Source: Candidatus Liptonbacteria bacterium (GTDB lineage Bacteria > Patescibacteriota > Minisyncoccia > UBA6257 > 2-01-FULL-56-20). Taken from it: 64,000 nt of DNA. Made by a program: the position numbers and the translations under genes. The notes beneath the pieces are model-generated. The model had not been told where the DNA came from and made no database searches. It saw only the letters and a program-made list of their open reading frames with translations. This document shows positions 2,259 through 49,085 of this stretch, in pieces. Within the stretch, counting starts at the first letter, position 1, and every line of letters begins with the position of its first letter. The DNA is taken from assembly GCA_016186635.1 (NCBI GenBank), contig JACPLI010000014.1, positions 804 to 64,803 of the forward strand, written 5' to 3'.

Positions 2259-3101
2259 ATGAGCGCGAGCGCAACAAGCGGAACAGGCACGGGCGGTGGA
2301 ACACCTCCAGCGGGCGGTGGAACACCTCCAGCGGGCGGTGGAACACCTCCAGCGGGCGGTGGAACACCTCCAGCGGGCGGTGGAACACCTCCAGTTCGGC
2401 GGCGTATCCTTATCGGACTCGCAATGGTAGTGGGTGCCGGACTCATCATCTTCGGCGCCTTCACGGCGGGTAAGAAATCAACGAGTGGTCCACCCTCAAA
2501 TCCTCCGGGGGTGGGCGGCGGGAGTACCAATGCGGTGCAACAAACCCAACCCAAGGGACAAAGCATGGCTAATCTCCCGCCTGGGTCGGGAGGGTCCACC
2601 GGCGGCACTGGCACCATCACTGCGGCTCCAGGGTCGGCCCTTGCCATCGGCAACCAACTCCATGTTCACATAGGGAAAGATGGGACGGTAACCACGGGGA
2701 CGAACACACCGTCAGGAGGACCACAAACTCCCGCGACAGGGCGATTCACTGCTGACGGACTCTTCGTGTTCTCATTGGAAGACGGCACAGGAGAAGTTGA
2801 GCCGTTTCCAAACGAACATGAATTCTGGGGGCTTCTCAACTACACCGGCACCAACACCACAAAGTGGGCGACAATTCCGGAGAGAGCACCGGATTTCGCC
2901 GTCACCCCGCAGAACATCGGGTTCTCCGTCCAATTCTCGCGGGGAGACGTGGAAGACCCCACGAACTGGACGCCGTGGTACAAGTTGTCGCCGACGGGGC
3001 CGGACGTTGATATCCCCGGAAAGCCGACGGCGTACCGCCTCCAACACACAAACAGTGTGGCGGCGGCGAGAATTCACCTTCTCTTCAAGAAAAGGTCCTA
3101 G
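2259..3101 (+). CDS. repeat-containing membrane-anchored/secreted protein
   Basis: N-terminus has 5 x GGGTPPA, one TM helix ILIGLAMVVGAGLIIFGAF, then Gly/Thr/Pro-rich ectodomain; no known domain. Confidence 0.6.
   Translation: MSASATSGTGTGGGTPPAGGGTPPAGGGTPPAGGGTPPAGGGTPPVRRRILIGLAMVVGAGLIIFGAFTAGKKSTSGPPSNPPGVGGGSTNAVQQTQPKGQSMANLPPGSGGSTGGTGTITAAPGSALAIGNQLHVHIGKDGTVTTGTNTPSGGPQTPATGRFTADGLFVFSLEDGTGEVEPFPNEHEFWGLLNYTGTNTTKWATIPERAPDFAVTPQNIGFSVQFSRGDVEDPTNWTPWYKLSPTGPDVDIPGKPTAYRLQHTNSVAAARIHLLFKKRS
2293..2398 (+). repeat. perfect tandem repeat 5 x 21 bp inside CDS
   Basis: unit ggcggtggaacacctccagcg repeated 5 times without mismatch, encoding (GGGTPPA)5. Confidence 0.85.
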
Positions 3102-4036: not shown

Positions 4037-6610
4037 CTAAATCACCACCACGCCAGCGACTCTATCGCCGGAGTTGAGGTTCATAATCCGCACGCCCTGC
4101 GCGGAGCGGCCCGTCTGGCGGACGCTTTTGAGCTCCGTGCGGATGACCTGCCCCTTTGCCGAGAGCGCGAGGAGTTCCGTCTCCTCGCCGAGGACGATGC
4201 CCGCAACCACCTTTCCCGTCTTCTCCGTCACCTTCGCCGTGCGAATCCCGGAGCCGCCGCGGTGCTGGGTTTTGTATTCCTTGAGCGGCGTCCGCTTGCC
4301 GAACCCCTTTTCCATCACCGCGAGGAGCTCCGCCGTGTCGCTCTTCTTCACCACGTCGAACCCCGCAACCGCGTCGCCGTGGCGAAGCCGGATGGCGCGC
4401 ACGCCCGCGGCGCCGCGCCCCATGGGCCTCGCCTGCGACTCCGCAAAGCGGATGGACTGGCCCTTCTCCGTCACGAGCACCACTTGGTCATCGCCCTTCG
4501 AGAGCCGGACCCACTTCAGCATGTCGCCTTTTTTTCCGCCGGAGGCGGATCCGGAGGTCCCTTTCCCGCCAGAGGCGGGTCCGCCTCGGGCGGAGGCGGA
4601 GAGCTTCATCCCGATAATCCCCGTGCGCCGGATATTTTCAAAGTCCTTCAAAGCGGTTTTCTTTATCATGCCGTTTTTGGTCACCATCACGAGATAGCGA
4701 TGAGCGATGAGTGATGAGTGATGAGTCTCCGATGCCTTGTTTCTTGCCCCTTGCTCGCCCCGTGGCGAAGCTGTACGGGGTTCCTTGTTACTCGATGGCA
4801 CATTGACGATCGCGCTTATGTTCTCGTCTGCGGGAATCTCAAGGAAATTGTGAATCGCTTTCCCCTTCGCGGTGCGGCTCGCGGCGGGAATCTCATACGC
4901 GCGCGTTTCGAATACTCTCCCGCGGCCGGTGAAGAAGAGTATCCGGTCGTGCGTGTTCGCGTGGAAGAAGTGCGAGAGGAAATCCTCCTCGGCGACATCA
5001 GACCCAATAAGCCCCTTGCCGCCACGCCGCTGGGCTTTGAAGGTGTCGGGCGGGAGGCGCTTCACATACCCCGACGCGGAGAAGGTAATAATTGCCTCTT
5101 CCTCGGGCACGAGGTCCTCGTCGGTCATCTCCTTCAAGGCATGCGCGACCACGTGCGTCCGGCGCGCCTCGCCATACTTCGCCTTGAGTTCCATGAGCTC
5201 CTTTTTCACCACCTCAAGCATCCGCGTGGGACTCTTCAAAATGAGCGTGAGTTCCTTGATGAGCGTGCGTTTTTCTTTAAGCTCGGCTTCGATTTTCTGC
5301 CGCTCCAATGCCGCGAGCGTCTGGAGCTTCATTTCCAAAATCGCGGCTGCCTGCGCCTCCGAGAGCGTGAAGTGCTTCATCAAGTTCGCCCTCGCGTCCT
5401 CGCGGTCCTTCGATTTCTTGATGGTGGCAATCACTTTGTCTATCGCATCAAGCGCCTTTGCGAGCCCCTCCAAAATATGCGCCCGCTCCTCCGCCCGCTT
5501 CAAGTCAAACTGCGTGCGGCGCTTCACCACCTCCCGCCGGTGCGCGACGTACGCGAGGAGCATCTCCTTCAAAGAGAAGAGTTCCGGCTGGATGCCGTCC
5601 CGCAAGGCAATCATGTTGAAATGGAAATCCTTCTGGAGGTCGGAGTGCTGGTAGAGCTGGTTTAAGATTTTCTGCGGCGCGGCATCGGACTTTAGTTCCA
5701 CCACGATGCGGAGCCCCTCGCGGTCGGACTCGTCGCGAAGGTCGCGGATGCCCTCGATTCTCTTCTCCTGCACAAGTTCCGCGATGTGCTTCACGAGCTC
5801 GGACTTGTTCACCTGGTAGGGAATCTCCGTAATCACGATGTCGAACCCCGCGCGCGTACTCTCTCCCTTCTTTCGCTCCACAATCTCCGCCTTCGCCCGG
5901 GTCGTGACCGCCCCCCGTCCCGTCGCGTATGCCGCCTTCACTGCCGCGCGGTCGTAAATCACGCCGCCCGTGGGAAAATCCGGCCCCTTCACATATTCGA
6001 GCAAATCCTCCGCCGCGGCGTTCGGCTTTTCGATAAGGAGCAGGGTTGCATCCACCACCTCCACCAAGTTGTGCGGCGGGATTGAGGTTGCCATCCCCAC
6101 CGCAATGCCCAAGGTGCCGTTCACGAGGAGGTTCGGAACCTTCGCAGGAAGCACCTTCGGCTCATCGCGGGTCGCATCGTAGTTCGGCTGCCAGTCCACC
6201 GTGTCTTTCTCGATATCAAACAGCATCTCCTCCGCGACTTTCGAGAGGCGCGCCTCCGTGTACCGCATCGCGGCGGGAGAATCCCCGTCCTGTGAACCAA
6301 AATTACCCTGGCCCCACACAAGGGGGTATCGCATGGAGAAGTCCTGCGCCATCCGCGCCAGCGTGTCGTAAATCGCCACGTCGCCGTGCGGGTGGTACTT
6401 CGCCATCGTCTCGCCCACCACGTTTGCCGACTTCCTGAATTTCGCGAGATGCGTGAGCCCTATGGACCACATGGTCCACAGCACCCTCCGGTGCACCGGC
6501 TTCAGCCCGTCGCGCACGTCCGGCAGGGCGCGCGCGACAATCACTGACATCGCGTAGTCGAGGTAGGATTCCTTTAACTCACTGGTGATTTCCCGTTTTT
6601 CGATATTCAT
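4037..6610 (-). CDS. gyrA: DNA gyrase subunit A
   Basis: 857 aa; N-terminal EITSELKESYLDYAMSVIVARALPDVRDGLKPVHRRVLW and catalytic-Tyr region AAMRYTEARL are GyrA hallmarks; C-terminal beta-pinwheel repeats. Confidence 0.95.
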   Translation of the reverse strand: MNIEKREITSELKESYLDYAMSVIVARALPDVRDGLKPVHRRVLWTMWSIGLTHLAKFRKSANVVGETMAKYHPHGDVAIYDTLARMAQDFSMRYPLVWGQGNFGSQDGDSPAAMRYTEARLSKVAEEMLFDIEKDTVDWQPNYDATRDEPKVLPAKVPNLLVNGTLGIAVGMATSIPPHNLVEVVDATLLLIEKPNAAAEDLLEYVKGPDFPTGGVIYDRAAVKAAYATGRGAVTTRAKAEIVERKKGESTRAGFDIVITEIPYQVNKSELVKHIAELVQEKRIEGIRDLRDESDREGLRIVVELKSDAAPQKILNQLYQHSDLQKDFHFNMIALRDGIQPELFSLKEMLLAYVAHRREVVKRRTQFDLKRAEERAHILEGLAKALDAIDKVIATIKKSKDREDARANLMKHFTLSEAQAAAILEMKLQTLAALERQKIEAELKEKRTLIKELTLILKSPTRMLEVVKKELMELKAKYGEARRTHVVAHALKEMTDEDLVPEEEAIITFSASGYVKRLPPDTFKAQRRGGKGLIGSDVAEEDFLSHFFHANTHDRILFFTGRGRVFETRAYEIPAASRTAKGKAIHNFLEIPADENISAIVNVPSSNKEPRTASPRGEQGARNKASETHHSSLIAHRYLVMVTKNGMIKKTALKDFENIRRTGIIGMKLSASARGGPASGGKGTSGSASGGKKGDMLKWVRLSKGDDQVVLVTEKGQSIRFAESQARPMGRGAAGVRAIRLRHGDAVAGFDVVKKSDTAELLAVMEKGFGKRTPLKEYKTQHRGGSGIRTAKVTEKTGKVVAGIVLGEETELLALSAKGQVIRTELKSVRQTGRSAQGVRIMNLNSGDRVAGVVVI
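4531..4600. repeat. GC-rich hairpin element inside gyrA (family CCGCCnnaGGCGGaTCC / TCCGCCTCGGGCGGA)
   Basis: ccgccggaggcggatcc ... cgccagaggcgggtccgcctcgggcggaggcgga; same motifs intergenic at 7629 and 33391; here translated as SASARGGPASGGKGTSGSASGGKKG. Confidence 0.55.
4697..4727. repeat. heptamer tandem array (GATGAGY)x4 in frame within gyrA
   Basis: gcgatgagcgatgagtgatgagtgatgagtc; minus-strand reading gives ETHHSSLIAHRY inside GyrA. Confidence 0.8.
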
Positions 6611-6644
6611 AGTGGATGAGTGATGAGTGATGAGTGATGAGTGA
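6611..6644. repeat. heptamer tandem array (TGATGAG)x4 abutting gyrA start codon
   Basis: agtggatgagtgatgagtgatgagtgatgagtga directly 5' of gyrA ATG (6610-6608, minus). Confidence 0.8.
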
Positions 6645-7020: not shown

Positions 7021-7593
7021 TCATGCGGACTTGAGCCCAATGGTTTTTGTCCCCTGCATCGCAACGAGGTCTTTCTTTCGGAAGACAAATTTCTCCTCGG
7101 CTCCGCCGCTTTCACCCATCTCCTTGAGGAATGACGCAGGAGATTTCTCATACGCGGGGATGACCACCTTCGGCTCGAGCTGGCGCACCACCTTCTCCGC
7201 GGCTTCGTCGCTTAAATATTTCGCGCCGAGCCGAAGGAACACCACGTCCGGCTCGTTCAGTTTCTCCAGCGCGTCCGCCTCAAGGCCTTTCGCGAGAGGA
7301 CCTAAAAACGCGAACTTCACATCCTCCCACCGCACGAGATACGCGGTGTGCGCCCGCCCGGCTCCCACCGGAAGCGCAATACCGCGCACTTCTATCCCCT
7401 TGGACTCGTATTCGCCGGGGAACGCGACCTCCGTCTGCGGACCCGGTTCCGCGTCGGGAGCAGGAATTTCTGCGTCGGTTTTCAAGACCACATCGCCCTT
7501 CAAGCGGTTTGATGGGGGGTCAACGAGCACCGAAACATCGCCGCTCTGGATGCGGAACGAACCCTCGCCGAGATAGGTGATAACCACGAGCAT
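7021..7593 (-). CDS. MBL-fold-like protein with degenerate metal-binding motif
   Basis: From internal ATG 7593: MLVVITYLGEGSFRIQSGDVSVLVDP resembles N-terminus of UPF0173/MBL hydrolases but the HxHxDH His ligands are replaced; ORF-track N-terminal 27 aa are translation of a hairpin repeat. Confidence 0.4.
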   Translation of the reverse strand: MLVVITYLGEGSFRIQSGDVSVLVDPPSNRLKGDVVLKTDAEIPAPDAEPGPQTEVAFPGEYESKGIEVRGIALPVGAGRAHTAYLVRWEDVKFAFLGPLAKGLEADALEKLNEPDVVFLRLGAKYLSDEAAEKVVRQLEPKVVIPAYEKSPASFLKEMGESGGAEEKFVFRKKDLVAMQGTKTIGLKSA

Positions 7594-7628
7594 AGTATAG
7601 CCGAAATCCAGGATAATTTCCAATGATT

Positions 7629-7657
7629 CCGCCAAAGGCGGATCCGCCTCGGGCGGA
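7629..7657. repeat. hairpin element ccgccaaaggcggatccgcctcgggcgga
   Basis: two adjacent short hairpins; near-identical copy at 33391-33420, related copy inside gyrA 4531-4600. Confidence 0.6.
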
Positions 7658-7766
7658 CAATTATCAATTTTCAAAAAATGCGTCGTAGAGAACCGATTGA
7701 AAATTGAACATTGATACTTGAAAATTCAGAAACGCGGGCTTGCGTTTCTGGGAAATCCCCGTATAA

Positions 7767-13693: not shown

Positions 13694-13717
13694 AGCTCGG
13701 TGAATAATTCGATTTCT

Positions 13718-13741
13718 GTCATTCCCGCGGAAGCGGGAATC
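13718..13741. repeat. hairpin gtcattcccgcggaagcgggaatc
   Basis: family also at 38551, 49086, 49903. Confidence 0.6.
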
Positions 13742-13769
13742 TATATCGTTATCGTTGAAGGGTTCTAGA

Positions 13770-14642
13770 TTATCGGGTCAAGCCCGATAATGACAATTGG
13801 GGGGTGTTATTCACCAAGCTCTTCTCATTCAACTTGTAGAAATTTTCGAAAAGCTTCGCGACAAGGATAGGTCCCGTGCCGCCAGGGGTGGGGGTGTAGG
13901 AAATAGTAGCGAGCGATGAGTGGCGAGTGGCGAGACTGCTGGAATCGAAGTCACCGAGAAGCTTGCCGCCCACGGAGTCGTACCCAAAATCAACCACAAG
14001 CGCGCCTTCTTTAAGCGTCTCTGCATTGAAAAGCCCTGCCTTGCCAGCGCCGGAGATTACCACATCACAGTTCTTGAGGATGGCAAAGTCCGCGCCGCGG
14101 CCCAACACATACAATTCACTCACCTTCCGCATGAGCCAGACCGCAATCGGCTTCCCGATGAGCATCCCCGCACCGATGACCGCCACTCGCTTACCCTTGA
14201 GGTCAACCTTCGCGCGCCGCAGGACCTCCTCCACGGTCGCGACCGCAGGGTGCAATACCTTCGCGCGGTTGTTGTAGTGGGCGCCCAGCGTCCGCTCGCT
14301 CAAGCAATCGGGGTCCTTCTCCGGCGGAATCGCATTCACGATGTAGGTGGCGTTCAGCGGCTCGGGGAGCGGCAGCTGCACAATCACGCCGCCGCAGGTT
14401 TTCCCCGCCGCGAGTTTTCCCACTTTCTCGCGGAGCGCATCATTCCCTAGGGCAGGAGCAAGTTTATAAATACGATAATCAATTCCCAGCCCTTTCGCGG
14501 TGTCCTGCTTTAGTTTTTGAAAACTTTCGGATGCGGGGTCATCGCCAATTAAAACTCCGGCGAAGAATTTCTTCGGCTTTGGCTTTTCTTTGAGGCGCCC
14601 GAGAAGCTCGGCGGCGATTTTTTTCCCGTCAATCATTGGCAT
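13770..14642 (-). CDS. folD: bifunctional methylenetetrahydrofolate dehydrogenase/cyclohydrolase
   Basis: MPMIDGKKIAAEL..., GVIVQLPLP, ...TPTPGGTGPIL FolD motifs; start placed at ATG 14642 (track start is a TTG within a heptamer array); C-terminal tail reads through hairpin repeats. Confidence 0.88.
   Translation of the reverse strand: MPMIDGKKIAAELLGRLKEKPKPKKFFAGVLIGDDPASESFQKLKQDTAKGLGIDYRIYKLAPALGNDALREKVGKLAAGKTCGGVIVQLPLPEPLNATYIVNAIPPEKDPDCLSERTLGAHYNNRAKVLHPAVATVEEVLRRAKVDLKGKRVAVIGAGMLIGKPIAVWLMRKVSELYVLGRGADFAILKNCDVVISGAGKAGLFNAETLKEGALVVDFGYDSVGGKLLGDFDSSSLATRHSSLATISYTPTPGGTGPILVAKLFENFYKLNEKSLVNNTPQLSLSGLTR
13917..13948. repeat. heptamer array (GAGTGGC/GATGAGT) in frame within folD
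   Basis: gtagcgagcgatgagtggcgagtggcgagactg encodes insert SSSLATRHSSLATIS just before the conserved TPxPGGxGP motif. Confidence 0.75.
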
Positions 14643-23145: not shown

Positions 23146-23210
23146 TGGGCCAGGAAGGACTCGAACCTTCGATCCTCTTGGTATAAGCAAGATGCTTTAG
23201 CCGCTAAGTC
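23146..23210 (-). pseudogene. tRNA-like fragment (anticodon arm with loop CTTATAC, T-arm, acceptor 3' strand) lacking matching 5' half
   Basis: minus strand ...GCA-TCTTG-CTTATAC-CAAGA-GGATC-GAAGG-TTCGAGT-CCTTC-CTGGCCC-A; complementary GGGCCAG occurs only ~520 nt upstream (approx 23663-23669). Confidence 0.4.
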
Positions 23211-23256
23211 CCGACGCTCCGGTCGGGACCCCGACCCTGCAAGGCGTCGGGGCTAC
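23197..23256. repeat. double-hairpin element R copy 1 (CCCCGAC..GTCGGGG / TCCCGACC-GGAGC-GTCGGGA / CTTAGCGGCtAAAGCA)
   Basis: near-identical unit at 23591-23660; related hairpin at 28706-28740. Confidence 0.6.
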
Positions 23257-23258
23257 TG

Positions 23259-23329
23259 TGGGCGCACTAGGAATCGGACCTAGGTCGGGCGTGTATAAGA
23301 CGCCTGCTTTGCCATTAAGCTATGCGCCC
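23259..23329 (-). tRNA. tRNA-Ile with rare anticodon TAT (UAU)
   Basis: GGGCGCA-TA-GCTT-AATGGCA-AAGC-A-GGCGT-CTTATAC-ACGCC-CGAC-CTAGG-TCCGATT-CCTAG-TGCGCCC-A; unusual T-loop TCCGATT. Confidence 0.75.
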
Positions 23330-23583
23330 ATCCTTATCTTCCCATCTCTCACTATCTTCTCAAGATAATCCTTTCTTTTCAACCTTTTCAGTCGCCTTTC
23401 AATCTCGCGAGCTTTTGCAAGCGTTGGAAACTCTTGAGAAAAAACGAACGCGAGATTCCCAAGCCGCATCGTGGACGGCGTATGACCGCCGAAGTGGTGC
23501 GTTAATCTTGCACCAATGTCGGTGGTACTCCCCACGTAAAACCTCCCGTCCCGCCCATTCTGCAATATATACACCCAAGCCAT
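23320..23583 (-). CDS. GIY-YIG nuclease family protein (small YhbQ/UPF0213-like)
   Basis: from ATG 23583: MAWVYILQNGRDGRFYVGSTTDIGARLTHH = GIY-YIG core; stop codon TAG lies inside tRNA-Ile positions 8-10. Confidence 0.7.
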   Translation of the reverse strand: MAWVYILQNGRDGRFYVGSTTDIGARLTHHFGGHTPSTMRLGNLAFVFSQEFPTLAKAREIERRLKRLKRKDYLEKIVRDGKIRMGA

Positions 23584-23590
23584 AGTACCT

Positions 23591-23660
23591 GCTTTGCCGC
23601 TAAGTCCCGACGCTCCGAGGTCGGGAGGCCACACCCCCGACGTGCTAGTCGGGGCGTCGA
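23591..23660. repeat. double-hairpin element R copy 2
   Basis: gctttgccgctaagtcccgacgctccgaggtcggga...cccccgacgtgctagtcgggg. Confidence 0.6.
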
Positions 23661-23687
23661 CCCTACTGGCCCGCGCGCTCCCCACTC

Positions 23688-24275
23688 CTACTGCTTCACT
23701 ATCGCGTCAAACCGGTCCATTGCCTGCCCGGCTTGGCCGTTGAACGTGTTGATTGCCTGCACTTCCGCGTTAATCTGGTTCACGAGCACCGCTACCTGCT
23801 TCGCCGAGCCGGGGACTCCCTTGAAACGCCCCTCGAGCGCCTGCAGGAGCTCGCTCAAGTAGTTGCTGTAGCTGATAAGCTTGTTTAAAAGCGCCAAGCG
23901 GCTCGCGATGGACTCAAGCGCCGCCTGCCGCGCCTCGAAGGACTGAATGCCGGAGAGCGCCTTCGTCATCGCGCCGATTTCGTCTGCGAGCGCCACCGCC
24001 TGGTTGCGAATCGCCTCACTCTGCTTCGTGGCATCGAGTGTAATGGCAAGCGCCTCGGAGAACTTCCCCTTCTTGTCGAGCTCGCTGATTTTCTCGATGC
24101 TCGTTCGGGAATCGTTCGAAAGGTTCACAATGTTTTGGGAGATGAGCGCTCCCCGAAGGCGGGCGTCTTGGAACTCCGAAGGGATTCCTTGCGAGAAGGA
24201 AAAGAGCCGGCTCGCGCCGTAGCCGGCGGCCACAATTACCACAAACGCAAGGAATAATTTGGTGCGGCGGGACAT
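23688..24275 (-). CDS. hypothetical membrane-anchored coiled-coil protein
   Basis: start at internal ATG 24275 (MSRRTKLFLAFVVIVAAGYGAS = TM anchor); remainder Ala/Gln/Leu-rich helical; track N-terminal extension overlaps tRNA-Gly. Confidence 0.45.
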   Translation of the reverse strand: MSRRTKLFLAFVVIVAAGYGASRLFSFSQGIPSEFQDARLRGALISQNIVNLSNDSRTSIEKISELDKKGKFSEALAITLDATKQSEAIRNQAVALADEIGAMTKALSGIQSFEARQAALESIASRLALLNKLISYSNYLSELLQALEGRFKGVPGSAKQVAVLVNQINAEVQAINTFNGQAGQAMDRFDAIVKQ

Positions 24276-26317: not shown

Positions 26318-26318
26318 A

Positions 26319-26472
26319 GGAGTAATCGCTAATAATGCGAATTATAATTTAATAACGCGAATTATTCAAACGTGGGAGGAGTATTCGCGAATAATGCAAA
26401 TATGGATTAAATAATGCGAATGGAATCTATTTGCATTATTTGCCGGAGATTCGCGATATTCGCGATTACTCC
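26319..26472. repeat. palindromic AATAAYGCRAAT-family element, copy 2 (longest, ~155 bp)
   Basis: ggagtaatcgctaataatgcgaat...attcgcgaataatgcaaat...aataatgcgaat...attcgcgatattcgcgattactcc between hppA 3' end and clpP 5' end. Confidence 0.7.
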
Positions 26473-26665
26473 TAGAGGAACGGCACCAGAAGTAAAGCAA
26501 TAATGTTGATTATCTTGATTACCGGATTGATTGCGGGTCCCGCCGTGTCCTTGTAGGGGTCGCCCACGTCGCTCGCTTCACTCACTCCCTCACAACCTCT
26601 CGGTTTTGAGTGATTTCCTACACGGTGAAACTCCCGTTTCCCCGACCCCCTTCCCGTGGGCGACC

Positions 26666-31807: not shown

Positions 31808-33331
31808 ATGCGCGACCACCTCGCCCGCGTGCACTCCGCAGAACTTGAGGGAATTAACGCGCGCCCCATCGAAGTTGAAGTTGACCTCAACGTCGGCCTC
31901 CATGCGTTCAACATTGTGGGACTCGCCGACAAGGCGCTGAACGAAGCGCGGGAGCGCGTGAACTCCTCGCTCAAAAATTCCGGCGTAAAGCCGCCGAACA
32001 GGGAAAACCGGAAGATTACGGTGAACCTCGCTCCCGCTGACGTAAAAAAAACGGGTTCGCAGTACGACCTTGCAATCGCGATAGGGTACCTCCTCGCCAC
32101 GCACCAGATAAAAGATTTTGACGCGAGCGACAAGCTTTTTATGGGAGAACTCGCGCTTGACGGCAGGCTCCGTCCGGTGCACGGAGCGCTCTGCATCAGC
32201 CACATGGCAGCGCAGTCCGGTTTCCGCTACCTCTTCCTCCCCGCGTCGAACGCCAACGAGGCCTCGGTAGTGCCCGACACGCACGTGGTTCCGGTTGAAA
32301 CACTGAATGATGCGATTGCATTCCTTGAGGGAAACCGCTCGCTCGCGCGTCACGCGTACCGCCCCGCCGAGCCGCCCACCGCGAATGTCCCCGACTTCGC
32401 CGACGTCAAAGGGCAGGAGAACGCGAAACGCGCGCTCATCATTGCGGCGGCGGGAGGGCACAATCTCCTCATGAGCGGGCCTCCCGGAGTAGGAAAGAGT
32501 CTCCTCGCGCACGCAATGGTGGGAATACTCCCCGCAATGGAGCCGGAGGAGTCCATTGAAGTTACAAAAATCTGGAGCGCCGCGGGGTTCCCTATGGCGG
32601 GGCTCCTTGCCGCACGGCCGTTCCGCGCGCCGCACCAAACCGCCACGCTTCCTGCAATCGTGGGAGGCGGCAGCGACCCCAAACCAGGCGAAATCAGCCT
32701 TTCGCACCGCGGCGTCCTTTTTCTCGATGAGTTTCCTGAATTTCAGCGTCACATTCTCGAAGCGCTCCGCGCGCCTCTCGAATCAGGCACCGTGCACGTC
32801 GCGCGCGCAAAGGGCGCGCTCACGTTCCCCGCGCGGTTTACGCTTATCGCCGCCATGAACCCCTGCCCGTGCGGATATCACGGCGACCCGGAAAAGGACT
32901 GCAAGTGTGCGCCGTACGAAGTGGTCCGTTACCAGAAGAAAATTTCCGGGCCGCTCACCGACCGCATTGACTTGCACGTCACCGTGCCGCGCGTGCCGAT
33001 TGAGCATCTCCGCGCGCCGCATGCCGCGGCGCTCACGAGCGCGGATGCGCGCGCCGTAATCGAGGCCGCGCGCGCCCGCCAGCGCGAACGGCTCAGCACA
33101 CTCCACATCACCACCAACGCCGACATGAGCTCCAAACACACCGAGTTGCTCGTGCGCATGGACCGGGGAGGGGAGGAGTTTGTGAGCACTCTCACACACA
33201 AAAAAATTTCTCCCCGCGCCTATTACCGCATTTTAAAAACCGCCCGCACGATTGCTGACATAGAAAATGCAGAATGCGTGTCTTCGGGGCACCTCGCGGA
33301 AGCGTGGAGTTACAGGGTGCGCGAGGAGTAA
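31808..33331 (+). CDS. comM: YifB/ComM-family Mg-chelatase-like AAA+ ATPase
   Basis: 507 aa; N-terminal Lon-like domain, Walker A GPPGVGKSL, sensor regions, C-terminal ChlI-like domain. Confidence 0.9.
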   Translation: MRDHLARVHSAELEGINARPIEVEVDLNVGLHAFNIVGLADKALNEARERVNSSLKNSGVKPPNRENRKITVNLAPADVKKTGSQYDLAIAIGYLLATHQIKDFDASDKLFMGELALDGRLRPVHGALCISHMAAQSGFRYLFLPASNANEASVVPDTHVVPVETLNDAIAFLEGNRSLARHAYRPAEPPTANVPDFADVKGQENAKRALIIAAAGGHNLLMSGPPGVGKSLLAHAMVGILPAMEPEESIEVTKIWSAAGFPMAGLLAARPFRAPHQTATLPAIVGGGSDPKPGEISLSHRGVLFLDEFPEFQRHILEALRAPLESGTVHVARAKGALTFPARFTLIAAMNPCPCGYHGDPEKDCKCAPYEVVRYQKKISGPLTDRIDLHVTVPRVPIEHLRAPHAAALTSADARAVIEAARARQRERLSTLHITTNADMSSKHTELLVRMDRGGEEFVSTLTHKKISPRAYYRILKTARTIADIENAECVSSGHLAEAWSYRVREE

Positions 33332-33453
33332 AAGTATCGCGAATATCGCAAATCGGCGGCAAATAATGCGAATGGATTCGCGTTATTTCCGCCAAAGGCG
33401 GATCCACCTCCGGCGGAGAATCAACCGTAATTCGCATTATTCGCGAATACTCC
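33326..33453. repeat. composite palindromic element (AATAAYGCRAAT family copy 3 fused with CCGCCAAAGGCGGATCC hairpin)
   Basis: ...tatcgcgaatatcgcaaat...aataatgcgaat...ccgccaaaggcggatccacctccggcgga...attcgcattattcgcgaatactcc between convergent comM and M23 peptidase. Confidence 0.7.
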
Positions 33454-34481
33454 TATTTGGCGAACGGGTTCACCGCTCCCAATACTTCAAAGTGCGCGTG
33501 GCACCCCGCCGCATCTCCCGTATCGCCCATCCTGCCGATTTCCTGCCCTTGTTTTACATACTCGCCCACATCCACCGACGCGGATTTAAGGTGCGCGTAG
33601 CGTGTCCGGACGTTGGCGCCCGCGGGGTGCTCGATCAGTACAAATGTCCCGTAGCCGCCGTTCCATCCGCCGCTCCCCTCGCCGTATTGCGCATCGGGCA
33701 CCGCAAGCCCCTCCGCCGCCGCGACGACTGGCGTGCCGCACACGCCCGCGATGTCCACTGCGTTCACCGGGTGGAGATTCCCGAGATTAAATCCGGACGC
33801 CGGCATCATAAAGTATCCCTTGAGCGCGGGAAGCGGCTTTCCATTTTCCCTCACGCGCGCGGCGAGCACGCCGGGGATAATGGGCCGGGCTCCCGGACCG
33901 AGCATCGCCACATTCACAGAGCGGTTTGCGTCCGCGATGTCCTTCGCCGCGACGCCGAACGCGTCCGCAACCGATTCAAGCGTTTCCCCTTCTTTGGTAA
34001 AGTAAACCGTCCCTGATACCGGGGGAATCTGAAGCGCCATCCCCACCGCAAGCCGGTTTGCCTTGACGTCCGGATTCGCCCGAAGCACGGTTTCGAGCGA
34101 TACCCCGAACTTTGCCGCAATCCCCGAAAACGTGTCGCCGCGTGCCACCTTATAGGTGGCAAATTCGGTGCGCGGCGAGAAACCCGGGGCGCTCCCGAAG
34201 GCACTAAGCGCGGCGAGGCGCACTCCCTGTGCCGCAGCGCGCTCGCCCGCCCGGTGCGCCGGAGACATGCCAAGCCGCGGGCGGCTCGCCATCGCCACGC
34301 TCACCGATTGAGCGCCCCGCGCGTGTAGCGCCGGCCCCCCCCACACCCCTTTCGCAAGAACCCGTGGGAGCTCTCCCGAAGAGTCAAGAATTCCCGCAGT
34401 GGCAAGTGCAACAAGCAACAAAACCGCGGCCACAAAAGGCGTGCGCTCCTCATGAAGCGATAGAATCATACTAATATTCAT
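33453..34481 (-). CDS. LysM-domain M23-family peptidase
   Basis: signal/TM, LysM YKVARGDTFSGIAAKFGVSLETVLRANP, M23 motifs GGYGTFVLIEHPAGANVRTRYAHL and HAHFEV. Confidence 0.8.
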   Translation of the reverse strand: MNISMILSLHEERTPFVAAVLLLVALATAGILDSSGELPRVLAKGVWGGPALHARGAQSVSVAMASRPRLGMSPAHRAGERAAAQGVRLAALSAFGSAPGFSPRTEFATYKVARGDTFSGIAAKFGVSLETVLRANPDVKANRLAVGMALQIPPVSGTVYFTKEGETLESVADAFGVAAKDIADANRSVNVAMLGPGARPIIPGVLAARVRENGKPLPALKGYFMMPASGFNLGNLHPVNAVDIAGVCGTPVVAAAEGLAVPDAQYGEGSGGWNGGYGTFVLIEHPAGANVRTRYAHLKSASVDVGEYVKQGQEIGRMGDTGDAAGCHAHFEVLGAVNPFAK

Positions 34482-34522: not shown

Positions 34523-36388
34523 ATGGACGCTCCTCTGAACCCGGAACAGCAGAAAGCCGCTTCCGCCCCGCACGGACCCCTCCTCATTGTTGCAGGGGCA
34601 GGCACCGGCAAGACGAAGACGCTCACGAGCCGGCTCCTCCGCCTCATAGAGGAAGGAGTTGTCCCGTCTTGCATCTGTGCGCTCACGTTTACGAACAAGG
34701 CGGCGAAGGAAATGGCGAACCGCGTCGCGACGATGACGAATGACCATAACGATGACGGCGGTCATAGTCATCGTCATAGTCATCGTATGAACGACCTGCC
34801 CTTCATCGGCACATTCCACTCGCTCGGGGCAAAAGTTCTCCGCGCTGAAGCGCGTGCAGTGGGGCGAACGCAGGGTTTCACCATCTTCGACGACGGCGAC
34901 TCGCTCTCCGCAATGAAGAAAGTTATGAAAGAACTTGACTTCCGCACGGGCAAACCCGCACAGGCGCTCCGCTACATTTCGTGGAAAAAAAGCGGGGCGG
35001 GAGAAGGCGTGGATGCCGGCACGCGTGACGACAAAAAGATATTTGAGCGTTACGAGGCATTCCTCGCCCGCGCAAACGCATTCGACTTCGATGACCTCAT
35101 CGCAAAGACAGTTGCGCTCTTCGAGCACAGCCCCGAGACGCTCGCGCGATATCAGAAGCGTTATACGCACATCCTCGTTGACGAATACCAAGACGTGAGC
35201 CCCGCGCAATACACGCTCGTGCGGCTCCTCGCGGGACGGCGCGCCCACGTGAGCGTCGTAGGAGACGACGCGCAGATGATTTACGGGTGGCGCTACGCAA
35301 ATCTCGACACGTTCCTTCACTTTGAGCGCGACTGGCCCGGCGCCCGCGTCGTGCTCCTCGAAGAAAACTACCGCTCTACCGCAATAATCGTCCGCGCCGC
35401 CTCTGCCGTCGCCGCGCAGAATGCGTTCGCCCGCAAAAAAGAACTCTGGACGCGGAATCCCGACGGAGAGCTCCTCACTATTGCCGAAACCGCGGACGAG
35501 GACGATGAAGCGGAGTGGGTGGGCGCGCAAATTGCGCGCACTATGACAGATGACGATCACCATGACGCCGGTTATCGTCATAGTCATGGTCATGGTCACG
35601 CCGGCAACTCCGTTGCCGTGCTCTACCGCACGAACGCCCAGTCGCGCGCGCTCGAGCAGGCGCTCCTCCGCCGCAACATTACGTACAAAATTTATGGAGG
35701 TCTGAAGTTCTACGAACGCCGCGAAATAAAAGACATCGTGGCGGGACTTCGTCTTGCGATAAACCCTCGAGACGAAATGAGCCGCGACCGCTTAGAAAAG
35801 GCCTTCCGGGTACGCGTGTTTGAAAACGTCGTGGCTACACTCACGAAGTGCGGTGGAACTTCCCCGCGCGCAGCAATCGAGAAGTTTCTTGCCGCTACGG
35901 ACTATTTTGAACATCTCGAGCGCGAAACCACGAACGCGGAAGAGCGCCGGGAAAACATCACCGAACTCCTCCGTTTTGCGGAGGGCTTCACCAACCTTGC
36001 TGATTTTCTCGAGCACGTTTCCCTTGTGCAGTCCACCGATGATGTGAACGCGAATTGCCAATTGCCAATTGCCAATTGCCAACCAGTGGTACATCTCTCC
36101 ACCATCCACCTCGCCAAGGGGCTTGAGTTCGACCGGGTGTTCCTCGCGGGATGTGCGGAAGGGCTCCTCCCGCACGCCCGCTCCATAGAAACGGAAGATG
36201 CAACAGAAGAAGAACGGCGGCTTATGTATGTGGGGATGACGCGCGCGCGGAAGAAGCTCTCGATTTCATTCTTCGGGATTCCCTCGAGGTTCCTTGGAGA
36301 AATCCCGGAAGATCTCATGGCGTACGAGAAAACCTCCGGCGCGGCCGATGATGAAAATAGTGAGGGGGCAGCGATTCAACTCAACTAG
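34523..36388 (+). CDS. UvrD/PcrA-family ATP-dependent DNA helicase
   Basis: Walker A GAGTGKT, motifs ILVDEYQD, VGDDAQMIYGWR, TIHLAKGLEFD, VGMTRAR; carries three in-frame heptamer-array inserts. Confidence 0.9.
   Translation: MDAPLNPEQQKAASAPHGPLLIVAGAGTGKTKTLTSRLLRLIEEGVVPSCICALTFTNKAAKEMANRVATMTNDHNDDGGHSHRHSHRMNDLPFIGTFHSLGAKVLRAEARAVGRTQGFTIFDDGDSLSAMKKVMKELDFRTGKPAQALRYISWKKSGAGEGVDAGTRDDKKIFERYEAFLARANAFDFDDLIAKTVALFEHSPETLARYQKRYTHILVDEYQDVSPAQYTLVRLLAGRRAHVSVVGDDAQMIYGWRYANLDTFLHFERDWPGARVVLLEENYRSTAIIVRAASAVAAQNAFARKKELWTRNPDGELLTIAETADEDDEAEWVGAQIARTMTDDDHHDAGYRHSHGHGHAGNSVAVLYRTNAQSRALEQALLRRNITYKIYGGLKFYERREIKDIVAGLRLAINPRDEMSRDRLEKAFRVRVFENVVATLTKCGGTSPRAAIEKFLAATDYFEHLERETTNAEERRENITELLRFAEGFTNLADFLEHVSLVQSTDDVNANCQLPIANCQPVVHLSTIHLAKGLEFDRVFLAGCAEGLLPHARSIETEDATEEERRLMYVGMTRARKKLSISFFGIPSRFLGEIPEDLMAYEKTSGAADDENSEGAAIQLN
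34761..34789. repeat. heptamer array (GTCATAG/TCATCGT)x4 in frame in helicase
   Basis: gtcatagtcatcgtcatagtcatcgtatg encodes GHSHRHSHRM; antisense gives spurious MTMTMT ORF. Confidence 0.8.
35571..35599. repeat. heptamer array in frame in helicase
   Basis: gttatcgtcatagtcatggtcatggtcac encodes YRHSHGHGH. Confidence 0.8.
36053..36075. repeat. heptamer array (AATTGCC)x3 in frame in helicase
   Basis: aattgccaattgccaattgccaa encodes NCQLPIANCQ immediately before conserved TIHLAKGLEFD. Confidence 0.8.
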
Positions 36389-37662: not shown

Positions 37663-38502
37663 ATGCCAGGAGCAAGATTAGGCCAGCACTTCCTCCGTGA
37701 CCAAGGCGCCCTCCGCGCGGTTGCGGCGGCGCTCGAGCTCGCGCCGGGCGACACCATTATCGAAATCGGCGCGGGGCATGGGGAGCTCACGGAAGAGTTG
37801 ATGAGTGAAAAGTGGAAAGTGAAGAGTGGAGAAAAAATACAAGTTCTTGCCATAGAAAAAGATTCGCGGCTTGCAAGAACGCTTCGAGAAAAATACTCGC
37901 GAAGCAGGAACATTGAAATAGTCGAGGGCGATGTGCGAACCGTATTGCCCTCCTTACTCACCACTTCTCACTCATCACTCGCCACTCGCCACTCGCCACT
38001 CGTTTACAAGCTCTGCGGCAACATCCCCTACTACCTCACTGGGTTTCTCTTCCGCATCGTGAGCGAACTTGAGCCGCTCCCCGCGCGGGCGGTGTTCACC
38101 ATTCAGAAAGAAGTTGCGGAGCGAATTGATGCAAAACCGCCGCACATGAATCAGCTTGCGGCGAGCGTGCAGTTCTGGGCGGAGCCGAAAATAATCCGCG
38201 TGGTTCCTCGGAGCGCGTTCTCACCGGCGCCAAAAGTGGACTCGGCGATTCTATTACTCAACCCTGTCATAAAAAAGGGAGAAAGAGGAGAAAAGGGGGA
38301 AAGGGGGAAATACTATGCGGCGGTCCATGCGCTCTTCTCCCAACCCCGCAAGACCATTCTGAACAACGTGGCGGCGGCGCTCCACGTGCCGAAAGAAGAA
38401 GCCGCACACACGCTTCATGAAGCGGGGATAGCTCCTCTCGCCCGCGCGCAGAACCTTTCTGTTGCAGATATCAAAAAGATATCCTCGCTTTTCCCGCTTT
38501 GA
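37663..38502 (+). CDS. rsmA: 16S rRNA (adenine1518/1519-N6)-dimethyltransferase
   Basis: GQHFLRD, SAM motif IIEIGAGHGELT, GNIPYY; contains three low-complexity in-frame inserts (37797-37835, 37952-38002, 38275-38315). Confidence 0.85.
   Translation: MPGARLGQHFLRDQGALRAVAAALELAPGDTIIEIGAGHGELTEELMSEKWKVKSGEKIQVLAIEKDSRLARTLREKYSRSRNIEIVEGDVRTVLPSLLTTSHSSLATRHSPLVYKLCGNIPYYLTGFLFRIVSELEPLPARAVFTIQKEVAERIDAKPPHMNQLAASVQFWAEPKIIRVVPRSAFSPAPKVDSAILLLNPVIKKGERGEKGERGKYYAAVHALFSQPRKTILNNVAAALHVPKEEAAHTLHEAGIAPLARAQNLSVADIKKISSLFPL
37952..38002. repeat. heptamer array (CTCAYCA/CTCGCCA)x7 in frame within rsmA
   Basis: ccttactcaccacttctcactcatcactcgccactcgccactcgccactcg encodes SLLTTSHSSLATRHSPL between conserved EGDV and KLCGNIPYY. 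Confidence 0.8.
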
Positions 38503-44122: not shown

Positions 44123-45544
44123 ATGAACAACCCAACCGTAATACCCGAAGAAAAAATCTTCCAGCGCTGGGATATGCTCCCCGAGGGACTCCGCGAGGCG
44201 CTTGTCTCTGAAAAATACGGCGATATTCTCTGGAAAACCTGCGCGGCGGAGCATCTCTCCGAGGAAAAAACGGGCGAGGTCGCCCGCATCGCTTCGTGGG
44301 TGTTTCTGGGATTCCTCCACCCCGAGGACATCGCGCGCGAGGTGCAGCTTTCGACCGGCATCCACGCCGAGGTTGCAAACGCGATTGCCGCGGCGCTCCA
44401 CGCGAAGATTTTCGCGCCGCTCCGCGAGACGCTCGAGTCCTCCTACGCCCCTCCGGGAACCACGCCCCGCTACGGCGAGGCGCCTGCGGGGCCCGTCATG
44501 CTTGAGGATATTCGCTCCATGGAAGACCGCGAGGGCGCGCCTGCTTCGCCGGAGCTCCCGCGAGGCGCGCAGGGCGCTTCTCTCTCTCACGGGATGGAAG
44601 CAACGCTCGAGAAGCTCCGCCCCTCCGCCGCAGAAGAGCCATTCTTCAAAGAAACGCCCGTAGCGCTTGAGGCGCTTAAGGAACAAGGAACAAGGAACAA
44701 GGAACAAGGAGAAGCCTTTGAAGTACCACCAGCATTCGAGATGCCGCCTCCCGAAAGAATGAGTGATGCGGGAAGAGTGATAAGTGATGAAGCGACCCGT
44801 CCCTCACCCCTCACCACTCAAAACTCATTCTCGCCACTCGCCACTCAACCCTCGCCACTTGAAACTTCCCCCTTCATCCTCCACGAAGAAGCCCCCGCGC
44901 CTTCGCTCCCGAACGTCGGCGACTTTTCGCTCGACATCAGGCCGGAAGAGTTCGGCCCCTCGGAGCAGGAACTGCAGAAAGCCCCGCAGGCGGACATCGA
45001 GATAGGGGGAGCAACAGAAGGAATAAGGAATAAGGAACAAGGAACAAGCGAGGAAGAAAAGGAATCGAGAATCGTTCACTACGGAGACTTGCGCACGCCG
45101 CTCGAAAGCGTGAGTGGCGAGGGAAAAGTGATGAGTGATGAGGCAACTCTCCTCTCACCCCTCACCCCTCAACACTCATCACTAGATGCAACTCCCGTTC
45201 CAAGCCCGACGTTTGCAGCGTTCAACCTCTCCGACCTTGCAGGGCTGGATGCTCCGCCTCCTCCACCTCCCGCCGCAACCGCGCCCGAGCCGGACGTGCC
45301 CCCGCCTCCGCCCGCCACTCAACCCTCGCCACTCGAAACTTCTCCAAAAAAGCAAGGGTTCTTTGCGCGGCTTTTCGGAAGAAGAGGAAGGGGGACTCTA
45401 GAACCTTCGGATGCCCAAGGTTCGACCTTGGAAGCAACCCCGGAACCCGACCTGCCTCCGCCTCCGCCCGATGAGCCACCCGTGCCGCCTCTACCCCCTG
45501 CTACCGGCGCCGACACGATAAACTTAGATTCTTTCAAGTCCTGA
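44123..45544 (+). CDS. hypothetical protein with folded N-domain and Pro-rich low-complexity tail
   Basis: 473 aa; tail contains AAGGAAC and GTGATGA-type heptamer arrays translated as EQGTRNKEQG, SDEATRPSPLTTQ etc. Confidence 0.45.
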   Translation: MNNPTVIPEEKIFQRWDMLPEGLREALVSEKYGDILWKTCAAEHLSEEKTGEVARIASWVFLGFLHPEDIAREVQLSTGIHAEVANAIAAALHAKIFAPLRETLESSYAPPGTTPRYGEAPAGPVMLEDIRSMEDREGAPASPELPRGAQGASLSHGMEATLEKLRPSAAEEPFFKETPVALEALKEQGTRNKEQGEAFEVPPAFEMPPPERMSDAGRVISDEATRPSPLTTQNSFSPLATQPSPLETSPFILHEEAPAPSLPNVGDFSLDIRPEEFGPSEQELQKAPQADIEIGGATEGIRNKEQGTSEEEKESRIVHYGDLRTPLESVSGEGKVMSDEATLLSPLTPQHSSLDATPVPSPTFAAFNLSDLAGLDAPPPPPPAATAPEPDVPPPPPATQPSPLETSPKKQGFFARLFGRRGRGTLEPSDAQGSTLEATPEPDLPPPPPDEPPVPPLPPATGADTINLDSFKS

Positions 45545-45556
45545 CTCGGAAAACCT

Positions 45557-45602
45557 TAATTCGCGTTATTTGCCCCAATTCGCATTATTCGCGATTACTC
45601 CT
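45557..45602. repeat. palindromic AATAAYGCRAAT-family element, copy 4
   Basis: taattcgcgttatttgccccaattcgcattattcgcgattactcc ending 1 nt before ATG 45603. Confidence 0.65.
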
Positions 45603-46109
45603 ATGCAATTCCAAGTTCCCCAATTTATCGAGACGGAAGACAAGATTGTGGGGCCTTTCACGCTCAAGCAGTTTATCGCGGTCGGCGCCGCAGTAGGCGT
45701 CTCGCTTGTCCTGTACCTCGTCGTCGTGCCGTGGCTCTGGCTCGTGCTCTCTATTCCCCTCGTCGGCGGCGGGATTGCCTTCGCCTTCGTGAGGGTAGGG
45801 GGGCGCGCGCTCCCTTCGGTCGCGCTCGCGGCGCTCCGCTATCTCTGGAAACCGCAAACGTACGTGTGGCAGCCGGAAGCGCAAGGAACAAGGGACAAGG
45901 AACAAGGAACGAAAACGGAAGAAAAGACGGGCGGGCTTTCGCTTGAGGAAGTGCTCTCGGGACTCTCCCTGCGGCGGACATGGCAGAAGCTCCAAACCGG
46001 CGCGGAGAAGCTCTCGCCGGGGCTCTTCCTCGCTCAGCGCGACCGCTACTCCATCTACCGGAAGCGGAGCGGGGAGAGGAGCGCCGCGAGGAGGATAGAT
46101 TACCGCTAG
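45603..46109 (+). CDS. PrgI/VirB3-like small membrane protein
   Basis: start at ATG 45603; two TM helices FIAVGAAVGVSLVLYLVVVPWLWLVLSIPLVGGGIAFAFV; position directly upstream of VirB4-like ATPase as in Gram-positive-type T4SS. Confidence 0.5.
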   Translation: MQFQVPQFIETEDKIVGPFTLKQFIAVGAAVGVSLVLYLVVVPWLWLVLSIPLVGGGIAFAFVRVGGRALPSVALAALRYLWKPQTYVWQPEAQGTRDKEQGTKTEEKTGGLSLEEVLSGLSLRRTWQKLQTGAEKLSPGLFLAQRDRYSIYRKRSGERSAARRIDYR

Positions 46110-46112
46110 AGG

Positions 46113-46168
46113 ACAAGTGGTGAGTGATGAGTGGTGAGTGGGGAGTGGTTAAGTGGCGAGTGATGAGG
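46113..46168. repeat. heptamer array (GTGGTGA/GTGATGA/GTGGGGA...)x8
   Basis: ggacaagtggtgagtgatgagtggtgagtggggagtggttaagtggcgagtgatgagg. Confidence 0.8.
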
Positions 46169-49079: not shown

Positions 49080-49085
49080 AGCCCT

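Follow-up and report, generated by a model that had tools for sequence, protein, structure and literature searches.

The window analysed here, a 64-kb stretch from the genome of a Candidatus Liptonbacteria bacterium (Parcubacteria/Patescibacteria), carries the gene for the A subunit of DNA gyrase, gyrA, and within it an in-frame block of short GC-rich hairpins that recurs elsewhere in the window. The encoded protein is 100% identical to a database entry named 'DNA gyrase subunit A [Candidatus Liptonbacteria bacterium]' (P0001 in our ortholog set) and combines the domains PF00521 and PF03989 (DNA_topoisoIV and DNA_gyraseA_C). At 857 aa it is longer than its typical relatives, which measure 805–812 aa. 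The host gene, the hairpin units of the block and the other copies in the window are as follows, with a strand given for gyrA and its insertion; CTD denotes the C-terminal domain of GyrA and ORF an open reading frame.

4037–6610, minus strand: gyrA, the host gene, from its ORF and translation (857 aa)
4535–4600, minus strand: in-frame hairpin insertion in the third CTD repeat, with strand GIIGMKL on one side and strand DMLKWVRL on the other
4535–4549: intact hairpin TCCGCC-GGA-GGCGGA in gyrA, from the pattern search
4550–4564: degenerate unit in gyrA, adjoining 4535–4549
4565–4579: intact hairpin CCCGCC-AGA-GGCGGG in gyrA, a variant with a C-G outer pair, which together with 4580–4594 makes a full 30-nt doublet
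4580–4594: intact hairpin TCCGCC-TCG-GGCGGA in gyrA, from the pattern search
7628–7657: intergenic 30-nt doublet TCCGCCAAAGGCGGATCCGCCTCGGGCGGA, between divergent genes, a Lactamase_B_3-like ORF (minus) and an S1-domain ORF (plus), the gene order being inferred from synteny with the sister genome L001
33388–33417: intergenic 30-nt doublet in which a stem has one mismatch (TCCACC), between the convergent ORFs 31808–33331 (plus) and 33453–34481 (minus)
53663–53677: single hairpin CCCGCC-TCT-GGCGGG, that is CCCGCCTCTGGCGGG, adjoining ATTCGCG repeats

Read on the plus strand, the gyrA block is TCCGCCGGAGGCGGA / TCCGGAGGTCCCTTT (the degenerate unit) / CCCGCCAGAGGCGGG / TCCGCCTCGGGCGGA / GGCGGA, or 66 nt made of four and a half tandem 15-nt units of the form TCCGCC-N3-GGCGGA, three of which are hairpins with a perfect 6-bp stem and a 3-nt loop. 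Read from the minus strand, which is the coding one, the block corresponds to SASARGGPASGGKGTSGSASGG, residues 671–692 of GyrA, and it is probably translated as such.

The first-pass annotation of this DNA had proposed that the paired hairpins in gyrA are repeated between genes, and a pattern search bears this out. The 28-nt paired-hairpin pattern CCGCCNNAGGCGGNTCCNCCTCNGGCGG occurs at 4566–4593, 7629–7656 and 33389–33416, against 0.00 expected from 100 dinucleotide shuffles; the span 33391–33420 proposed for the last copy is about 3 nt off, the unit itself being 33388–33417. The gyrA copy at 4566–4593 and the intergenic copy at 7629–7656 are identical at 26 of 28 nt, and single-hairpin patterns are enriched in the window as well (21 against 3.75 expected, and 7 against 0.48 expected). 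As single-stranded DNA the doublet forms a pair of 6-bp hairpins (−12.8 kcal/mol, z = −4.7), and as RNA a single long one (−21.5 kcal/mol, z = −5.4). An Rfam scan of the window at gathering thresholds returned tRNAs only, and in an E-value scan of 7580–7700 the top match, CRISPR-DR58, scored 18 bits where the gathering score is 38 (E = 0.21), so that no family was assigned. The L001 spacer syntenic to 7628–7657 (L001 8980–9160) contains no doublet copy, and the doublet at 33388–33417 lies at the apex of a larger, imperfect palindrome (33337–33456) that ATTCGCG-type repeats build up.

The insertion among GyrA orthologs and in the predicted fold

We compared the GyrA site across an alignment of 110 Parcubacteria GyrA proteins, with kinship taken from the identity matrix. 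At the codon boundary of the insertion 106 of the 110 are empty, with nothing between the strand ...GIIAIxL and KKGD.LKW..., and the site is occupied in four: the window protein, P0002, P0033 and P0084. The DNA of the last three holds a 30-nt double hairpin at an identical codon boundary, namely TCCACCAAAGGCGGATCCGCCTCGGGCGGA in L001 (P0002, read as STKGGSASGG), TCCGCCCAAGGCGGATCCGCCTCTGGCGGA in L002 (P0033, SAQGGSASGG) and TCCTCCAAAGGAGGGTCCGCCTCTGGCGGA in L129 (P0084, SSKGGSASGG), so that the Gly-rich loops of these related proteins come with the hairpin DNA; a homologous loop lacking such DNA, which the first-pass annotation named as grounds for refuting its idea, is not what these orthologs show. 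The L001 gyrA doublet and the window's intergenic copy at 7628–7657 are identical at 29 of 30 positions. Three lineages carry the insertion, one comprising P0001 and P0002 (88% identical) and the others P0033 and P0084, and the closest relatives of P0033 (≈85% identical) and of P0084 (≈73% identical) are empty. The empty gyrA alleles in L130 and L003 are exactly 30 nt shorter and have no duplicated target. These comparisons show that the gyrA block is an insertion and that its site has been occupied repeatedly and independently. The 66-nt block is an ancestral 30-nt insertion, common to the window and its sister genome and later grown by a nested second copy or by unit duplication, because L001 holds the 30-nt doublet at the same boundary. 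The proposal that a palindromic repeat landed in frame in gyrA therefore stands, since the nucleotides are those of the intergenic copies and the block is missing both from the 106 orthologs and from the solved CTD structures.

A fifth carrier, P0108, is empty at the CTD site, and an N-terminal-domain loop of this protein contains TCCGCCAGAGGCGGACCAGCCTCGGGCTGG (SARGGPASGW); its contig bears an additional perfect doublet at the 3′ end of the adjacent Lactamase_B_3 gene. The loop of the N-terminal domain after AEIVERK (window ≈5840–5880; alignment columns 247–277), contains short Gly/Arg/Ser-rich extras in Liptonbacteria-clade proteins (GRGG, SRSGG, ARLPAGRQGG and PARTEGGSRSGG), which may be decayed leftovers of hairpin insertions. 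The extra at this place in L001 is a different GC palindrome, CCTGCCTGCCGGCAGGCAGG. Several other Parcubacteria GyrA proteins (P0058, P0063, P0076, P0080, P0088, P0092 and others) reach 1100–1290 aa and contain intein/LAGLIDADG domains (PF14890, PF14528).

Within the CTD, the hairpin insert occupies the turn after strand GIIGMKL in the third of six repeats, which makes the earlier description of a Gly-rich segment 'between blades' roughly accurate. An AlphaFold2 model of the window GyrA, made with the 110-sequence alignment, has a mean predicted local distance difference test score (pLDDT) of 74; residues 672–692 score below 50 and the blocks flanking them 75–89. The insert is thus predicted to be a floppy glycine-rich surface loop. 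This modelled disorder between confident β-pinwheel strands agrees with the suggestion that the insertion is tolerated, and for gyrase the segment is probably neutral or nearly so. A second in-frame insertion, not recognized in the first-pass annotation, lies at ≈4699–4790 (residues ≈606–637), reads ...SNKEPRTASPRGEQGARNKASETHHSSLIAHR and is built from heptamer repeats that also occur between genes. It too has pLDDT values below 50, with residues 608–635 at low confidence, and is absent from solved CTDs; the β-strands around the two inserts are modelled at 75–91. HMMER alignment to solved GyrA CTDs (Mycobacterium tuberculosis 4g3n/3uc1 and Escherichia coli 1zi0) is broken exactly at both inserts, where the query has 30 and 33 residues and the solved chains 9 and 6. 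An ancestral CTD loop is not what these data describe, as the feature is not conserved, being missing in 106 of 110 orthologs and in the M. tuberculosis and E. coli structures. For gyrase itself, the comparison identifies two CTD loops that take 22–30 additional residues.

Distribution and anatomy of the doublet

We scanned one genome per GTDB species (596 Gb) with the query CCGCCNNNGGCGGANCCGCCNNNGGCGG and obtained matches at 120 or more loci, where about 0.3 would be expected by chance on an arithmetic estimate from the 21 specified bases; the copy statistics that follow rest on the matches listed. Among these, the hosts include most Patescibacteria classes (Saccharibacteria, Microgenomates and Doudnabacteria among them) as well as Omnitrophota, Kiritimatiellae, Lentisphaerae, Verrucomicrobia, Planctomycetes, Ignavibacteria, Bacteroidota, Chloroflexota and a few others, and a match in a high-GC Nocardioides looks like chance. 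The first-pass annotation had recognized a repeat of this genome and had missed that it is shared across many phyla. GC content ranges from 27 to 70% across the loci and the flanks are unrelated, the conserved block being exactly 30 nt. The set includes contigs of 0.7–1.6 Mb (L022, L044, L104 and L109) and one single-cell genome (L009).

The sequence logo reads tTt TCCGCC-NNA-GGCGGA-TCCGCC-TNN-GGCGGA aAa, where position −2 is T and position +2 is A in 80% of copies each, and 65% have both. The first loop is purine-rich (AGA, GGA, AAA, GAA, CAA, CGA) and the second belongs to the pyrimidine-rich mirror class. The two loops are complementary, as a full 30-nt palindrome would have them, in 15% of copies against 13% expected, and the element is therefore a head-to-head dimer of two independent hairpins. 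In this doublet-ascertained sample, perfect-stem units occur 131 times as a run of two and 37 times singly, many of the single ones being halves of degenerate doublets, and runs of more than two are absent; tandem copies of the doublet occur in L032 and L039. The stems covary: where both positions of a pair have changed in near-consensus copies, Watson-Crick pairing is kept in 49 cases and lost in 9. In ≈40 hairpins C-G replaces T-A as the outer pair, and independent internal compensatory changes are found in L003, L116, L077, L129, L108 and L035. Either hairpin formation is required for propagation, or correction within the palindrome matches the arms to each other. Target-site duplication is not seen in general, direct flank similarity of 5–7 nt being present in only 15 of 127 copies, several of them within local arrays of short tandem repeats (e.g., L050, L053 and L086–L088). 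Palindromy of the flanks exceeds random only at positions ±1–3.

A copy was counted as coding when it lay inside an ORF no shorter than 150 codons and was flanked there by 25 codons or more in both directions, and by this definition ≈62 of ≈130 copies (≈48%) are inside long ORFs. The hosts are unrelated housekeeping proteins, including DnaG primase, DnaK, DnaJ (in the G/F region), the α subunit of DNA polymerase III, the β′ subunit of RNA polymerase, several aminoacyl-tRNA synthetases, DEAD-box helicases, PurA, PurC and ALAD; 52 host proteins matched 117 Pfam families. Compared with E. coli DnaK, the copy in DnaK is an insertion of 10 residues. The frame is strongly biased, with 54 of the 62 coding copies reading Ser-Ala-x-Gly-Gly-Ser-Ala-x-Gly-Gly, usually in the context F|SAKGGSASGG|K. 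Stops within the element cannot account for this bias, because no frame on either strand has a fixed stop, and the bias probably reflects selection for an innocuous Gly/Ser/Ala peptide together with target preference. The latter would contribute in that TTT|AAA gives Phe-Lys in phase 0 and contains TAA in phase 1. A TGA in the first loop occurs in five copies. Four of these are non-coding, and the one in L033 gives an in-frame stop in an ORF with the C-terminal domain of the type IX secretion system (T9SS).

In Bacteroidota/Ignavibacteria the doublet recurs within T9SS C-terminal sorting domains (L033 1239, L058 1102, L044 6021 and L063 390). The L058 copy splits the motif PNPF|NPS, and that in L033 does likewise, with the TGA loop that would truncate the domain.

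How the doublet may spread

[quoted passage not shown] We infer that the element is mobile DNA acting in cis, moved by a trans-acting nuclease or transposase of structure or sequence specificity or by hairpin-induced template switching. Under this proposal the basic unit would be the 15-nt GC hairpin TCCGCC-NNN-GGCGGA, and the propagating form its 30-nt head-to-head dimer TCCGCC-NNA-GGCGGA-TCCGCC-TNN-GGCGGA. New copies would arise at junctions between T-rich and A-rich DNA (tTt|aAa) without target-site duplication, and an ORF would be neither shifted nor terminated because the element's length is divisible by three and fixed stops are absent from all frames of both strands. In its commonest phase the insertion would encode a flexible linker-like peptide, Ser-Ala-x-Gly-Gly twice over, and with the frame kept, copies would for that reason survive in surface loops, even of essential proteins. 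In GyrA, a 30-nt copy would have entered the turn between two strands of the third CTD repeat before the split from L001, and growth to 66 nt by a nested second insertion or unit duplication would have followed in the window lineage.

A wider proposal is more tentative, and we would put it a little short of an even chance. It sees in the 30-nt doublet a mobile element found across phyla of uncultivated bacteria (Patescibacteria, Omnitrophota, the Planctomycetes-Verrucomicrobia-Chlamydiae group, Ignavibacteria/Bacteroidota and Chloroflexota), spreading in a way that is possibly enzyme-independent or structure-specific, preferring TTT|AAA-like junctions, entering the loops of partial tRNA copies as well, and encoding SAxGGSAxGG in about half of its copies. 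If true, no smaller gene-colonizing repeat would be known, and the doublet would time and again give essential proteins new Gly-rich loops.

Several observations weigh against mobility. Across 125 loci of 8 kb, no transposase, REP-associated tyrosine transposase (RAYT), insertion sequence (IS) or other gene is recurrently linked to the doublet; all-against-all clustering of 3100 ORFs from ≈130 loci gave no family present in more than five loci, the top clusters being FolD, an ABC ATPase, SHMT, enolase and small GIY-YIG proteins. Neither a target duplication nor conserved termini point to a known transposition chemistry, and a viral vehicle finds little trace in IMG/VR, where 2.9 million viral contigs gave only five matches. 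Copy density in the window is modest, at three doublet sites per 64 kb, and nearly all of the data come from metagenome-assembled genomes. That the 24 stem positions are identical in many phyla is difficult to reconcile with selfish DNA that has no identified vehicle, and this conservation could instead be a sign of function. Repeated occupation of the same GyrA codon could, moreover, derive in part from recombination between lineages and not from independent insertion.

These points give room to other explanations, and the lack of a linked gene or target duplication is what the enzyme-free one would lead us to expect. Here the hairpin would stall replication, the nascent strand would switch template at short T-run/A-run microhomology, and the 30-nt palindrome would be copied to a new locus. 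The favored 5′ T-runs and 3′ A-runs could supply that microhomology, and the nested or expanded copies in gyrA and the tandem ones in L032 and L039 fit as well. However, the boundaries are sharp at exactly 30 nt in most copies, where variable carry-over of donor flank would be expected, and the model alone does not explain the cross-phylum identity, so we regard it as unlikely, though not fanciful. We are more doubtful that the doublet is a functional DNA or RNA signal under selection (a protein binding site, terminator, RNA-stability hairpin or uptake-type signal) with the coding copies as by-products. Conserved, covarying stems across phyla would suit a signal, the 33388 copy sits in a terminator-like position between convergent genes at the apex of its larger palindrome, and single hairpins follow the tmRNA gene in L145 and lie close to tRNA genes. 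Against this, the copies lack a U-tract, the 7628 copy lies between divergent genes, no Rfam family matches, and the copies are clean 30-nt indels rather than substitutions; about half of them, in addition, are in unrelated housekeeping ORFs, where a terminator or operator would be harmful. Less probable again, and to our minds improbable, is the reading in which the doublet serves small GIY-YIG (YhbQ/Slx1-like) nuclease cassettes, common in these genomes, as their cis element. GIY-YIG/Slx1-type nucleases are structure-specific, and a GIY-YIG ORF is present in 9 of the 125 doublet loci, with the doublet less than 200 bp away in four of the nine (L045, L039, L070 and L006; binomial p ≈ 0.008, an estimate). 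Yet in three independent loci, reached from three GIY-YIG proteins, the 3 kb around the ORF are free of doublets (one of these loci carries a single hairpin at a distance of 150 bp), the ORFs in L132 and L138 have their own unrelated inverted repeats, CCCCGTAG.GAAATTT, and over 15 kb separate the window's GIY-YIG ORF (23323–23706) from every doublet. Where the two features are close, partial tRNA duplicates harbor both, and such a shared context accumulates junk.

Two further explanations make no appeal to a repeat with a biology of its own. That the Gly-rich segment is an ordinary lineage-specific GyrA loop, produced by slippage or point mutation and like the hairpins by coincidence, could draw on the variable length of GyrA CTD loops in this clade and on the growth from 30 to 66 nt, which may include local duplication. 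It is effectively refuted, and very improbable indeed, given the 26/28-nt match to an intergenic copy where none is expected, the same codons in the DNA of the other carrier lineages, the same 30-mer at no fewer than 120 loci with unrelated flanks in other genomes, and the 106 empty orthologs. A technical artefact (linker, adapter or assembly chimera) is brought to mind by GGCGGATCCGCC, which has a BamHI site and resembles synthetic linkers, and the literature returned only cloning primers for that string. The doublet is nevertheless present in assemblies from many independent studies and platforms, including the long contigs and the single-cell genome mentioned above; its loops vary and its stems covary, its in-frame positions are in permissive protein loops, and sister genomes from different samples carry it at the orthologous position. 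We consider the chance of an artefact negligible.

Mobility of the repeat, within and perhaps between genomes in which recognizable transposases are few, remains our preferred account. Beside it stand some observations on tRNA genes and the GIY-YIG family. The doublet occurs in partial or defective tRNA copies, in the D-loop (L070 590–723, L113 2400–2560 twice and L045 7270–7335) or the anticodon loop (L039 7380–7480). We considered these as tolerated insertions in functional tRNAs and rejected the idea: ARAGORN calls the L070 tRNA-Val, with two mismatches in its acceptor stem, only after in-silico deletion of the 30 nt, and there is an intact tRNA-Val upstream, and the cases in L113, L045 and L039 are partial tRNA duplicates, hence pseudo-tRNA contexts. 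The window's GIY-YIG ORF (23323–23706, minus strand) lies beside tRNAs at 23146–23217 and 23259–23329, with a duplicated tRNA fragment at 23196–23225 and 23590–23625. Homologous ORFs in L132 and L138 are bracketed by the ≈20-nt inverted repeats already mentioned, and those in L039, L045 and L070 have a partial tRNA on one side and an intact one on the other. Members of the family number in the thousands, chiefly in Patescibacteria, and the small ORFs look like mobile cassettes that target tRNA genes.

Relation to known repeats and other repeats in the window

Intragenic palindromic repeats are already known; what sets this one apart is a 30-nt length, no tag, no RAYT association seen in the sampled loci, an intragenic share of ≈50% and, above all, a sequence shared across phyla. 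RPEs occur in frame in many unrelated and often essential genes as well as between genes, and their peptide is thought to be compatible with the fold of the host protein (PMC10969869, PMC3733652). The doublet resembles them in entering many unrelated ORFs in frame and in having intergenic copies. RPEs measure ≈100–150 bp, encode 30–50 aa, and comprise several families confined to Rickettsia (PMC10969869), whereas the doublet is a single family of 30 nt (10 aa) found in many phyla. Di Nocera et al. (2013) described REP dimers, encoding 20–30 aa, inside genes for replication, repair and tRNA synthetases in Opitutus terrae, Thauera and R. conorii, and the partners of the O. terrae dimers are only 1–2 bp apart (PMC3733652). 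Like REP sequences and the bacterial interspersed mosaic elements (BIMEs) and REP doublets forming hairpins (REPINs), the doublet consists of short GC-rich hairpins (15-nt units) in inverted dimers with significant folding. REP superfamilies are defined by a GTAG or CGTC tag at one end (PMC3733652), and no such tag appears in the doublet logo; nor is a RAYT or other tyrosine transposase seen beside doublet copies in the sampled 8-kb loci. REP families, moreover, are specific to a species or genus with few intragenic members, and REP/REPIN sequences are mostly extragenic and number hundreds per genome, unlike the doublet with its cross-phylum distribution, its ≈48% share in long ORFs and its three sites in the 64-kb window.

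The label 'MITE-like' (miniature inverted-repeat transposable element) given to the gyrA segment in the first-pass annotation does not hold, because there is no core bounded by terminal inverted repeats, the whole element being palindromic, there is no target-site duplication and the length is only 30 nt. MITEs such as Correia, ERIC and RUP measure 70–300 bp and have IS-derived terminal inverted repeats and target-site duplications, none of which applies to the doublet, although it shares with them the nature of a small non-autonomous repeat able to make in-frame fusions. The element is closer to REP dimers and RPEs than to MITEs. The mobile GC clusters of yeast mitochondria are GC-rich palindromes of 30–40 nt with A+T-rich flanks, presumed to be mobile without an encoded enzyme and found occasionally in coding or rRNA genes. 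They belong to fungal organelles, are usually accompanied by short target duplications and do not recur in distant hosts. The doublet is similar to them in size, GC palindrome and AT-rich flanks, a likeness by description and not by sequence. With uptake signal sequences (USS), DNA uptake sequences (DUS) and palindromes of the highly iterated (HIP1) type it has in common a short conserved motif tolerated in ORFs with a frame bias; these are built by substitution and are lineage-specific, whereas doublet copies are clean 30-nt insertions. Searches with exact DNA and peptide strings found no published description of the doublet, only cloning primers, synthetic linkers and work on REPs, RPEs and MITEs, which is weak evidence given incomplete literature coverage.

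If our account is right, the presence of selfish DNA in protein genes, known mainly from Rickettsia and a few REP-rich species, would extend to the streamlined genomes of the candidate phyla radiation (CPR) and to Omnitrophota, and to a much smaller element of 10 codons shared across phyla. It would provide a concrete and datable route to disordered Gly/Ser-rich loops in conserved proteins and insertion markers for the phylogeny of uncultured lineages, and would account for some of the length heterogeneity that troubles alignment and annotation of CPR proteins.

The hairpins are not the only repeats to have entered ORFs here. The second gyrA insertion contains (GATGAGT)x4, identical at 27 of 28 nt to an array at 6615–6644 just upstream of the gyrA start codon, and GTTCCTTGTT, which matches (AAGGAAC)n arrays; it also holds a CCCCGT...ACGGGG hairpin. 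Heptamer arrays are translated as 7-aa repeats of the KEQGTRN type in the ORFs 44123–45544 and 45570–46109, and other GyrA orthologs have other repeat-like peptides in the same variable loops. Because heptamer arrays are translated in gyrA and in other ORFs and such peptides occupy the ortholog loops, colonization of ORFs by several classes of short repeat looks like a general trait of the clade.

Many tandem arrays with a 7-nt unit (GATGAGT, AAGGAAC, CACTCGC, AATTGCC and others) are found in spacers and ORFs of the window at 6615–6644, 13918–13934, 36053–36082, 37956–38002, 44678–44860, 45018–45178, 45882–45910, 46116–46167, 46592–46646 and elsewhere, and in loci of other phyla the TCCGCC doublet lies inside similar short tandem arrays (L050, L053 and L086–L088). 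Repeats of ATTCGCG / AATAATGCGAAT form long imperfect spacer palindromes at 2016–2108, 26318–26475, 33337–33456, 45553–45604 and 52984–53038. Another hairpin family, TGTCATTCCCGCG-NNN-GCGGGAATC, has copies at 13714–13745, 49082–49113 and 49898–49929, two of them with a second hairpin, GGGTTCCCGCTTCYGCGGGAAC, ≈25 nt later; a related motif, GTCATTCCGAGCG..., precedes type-B GIY-YIG ORFs in L006 and L011. Finally, the ORF at 2259–3101 (280 aa) contains a perfect tandem repeat of five 21-nt units at 2290–2394, which encodes (GGGTPPA)x5 near the N-terminus.

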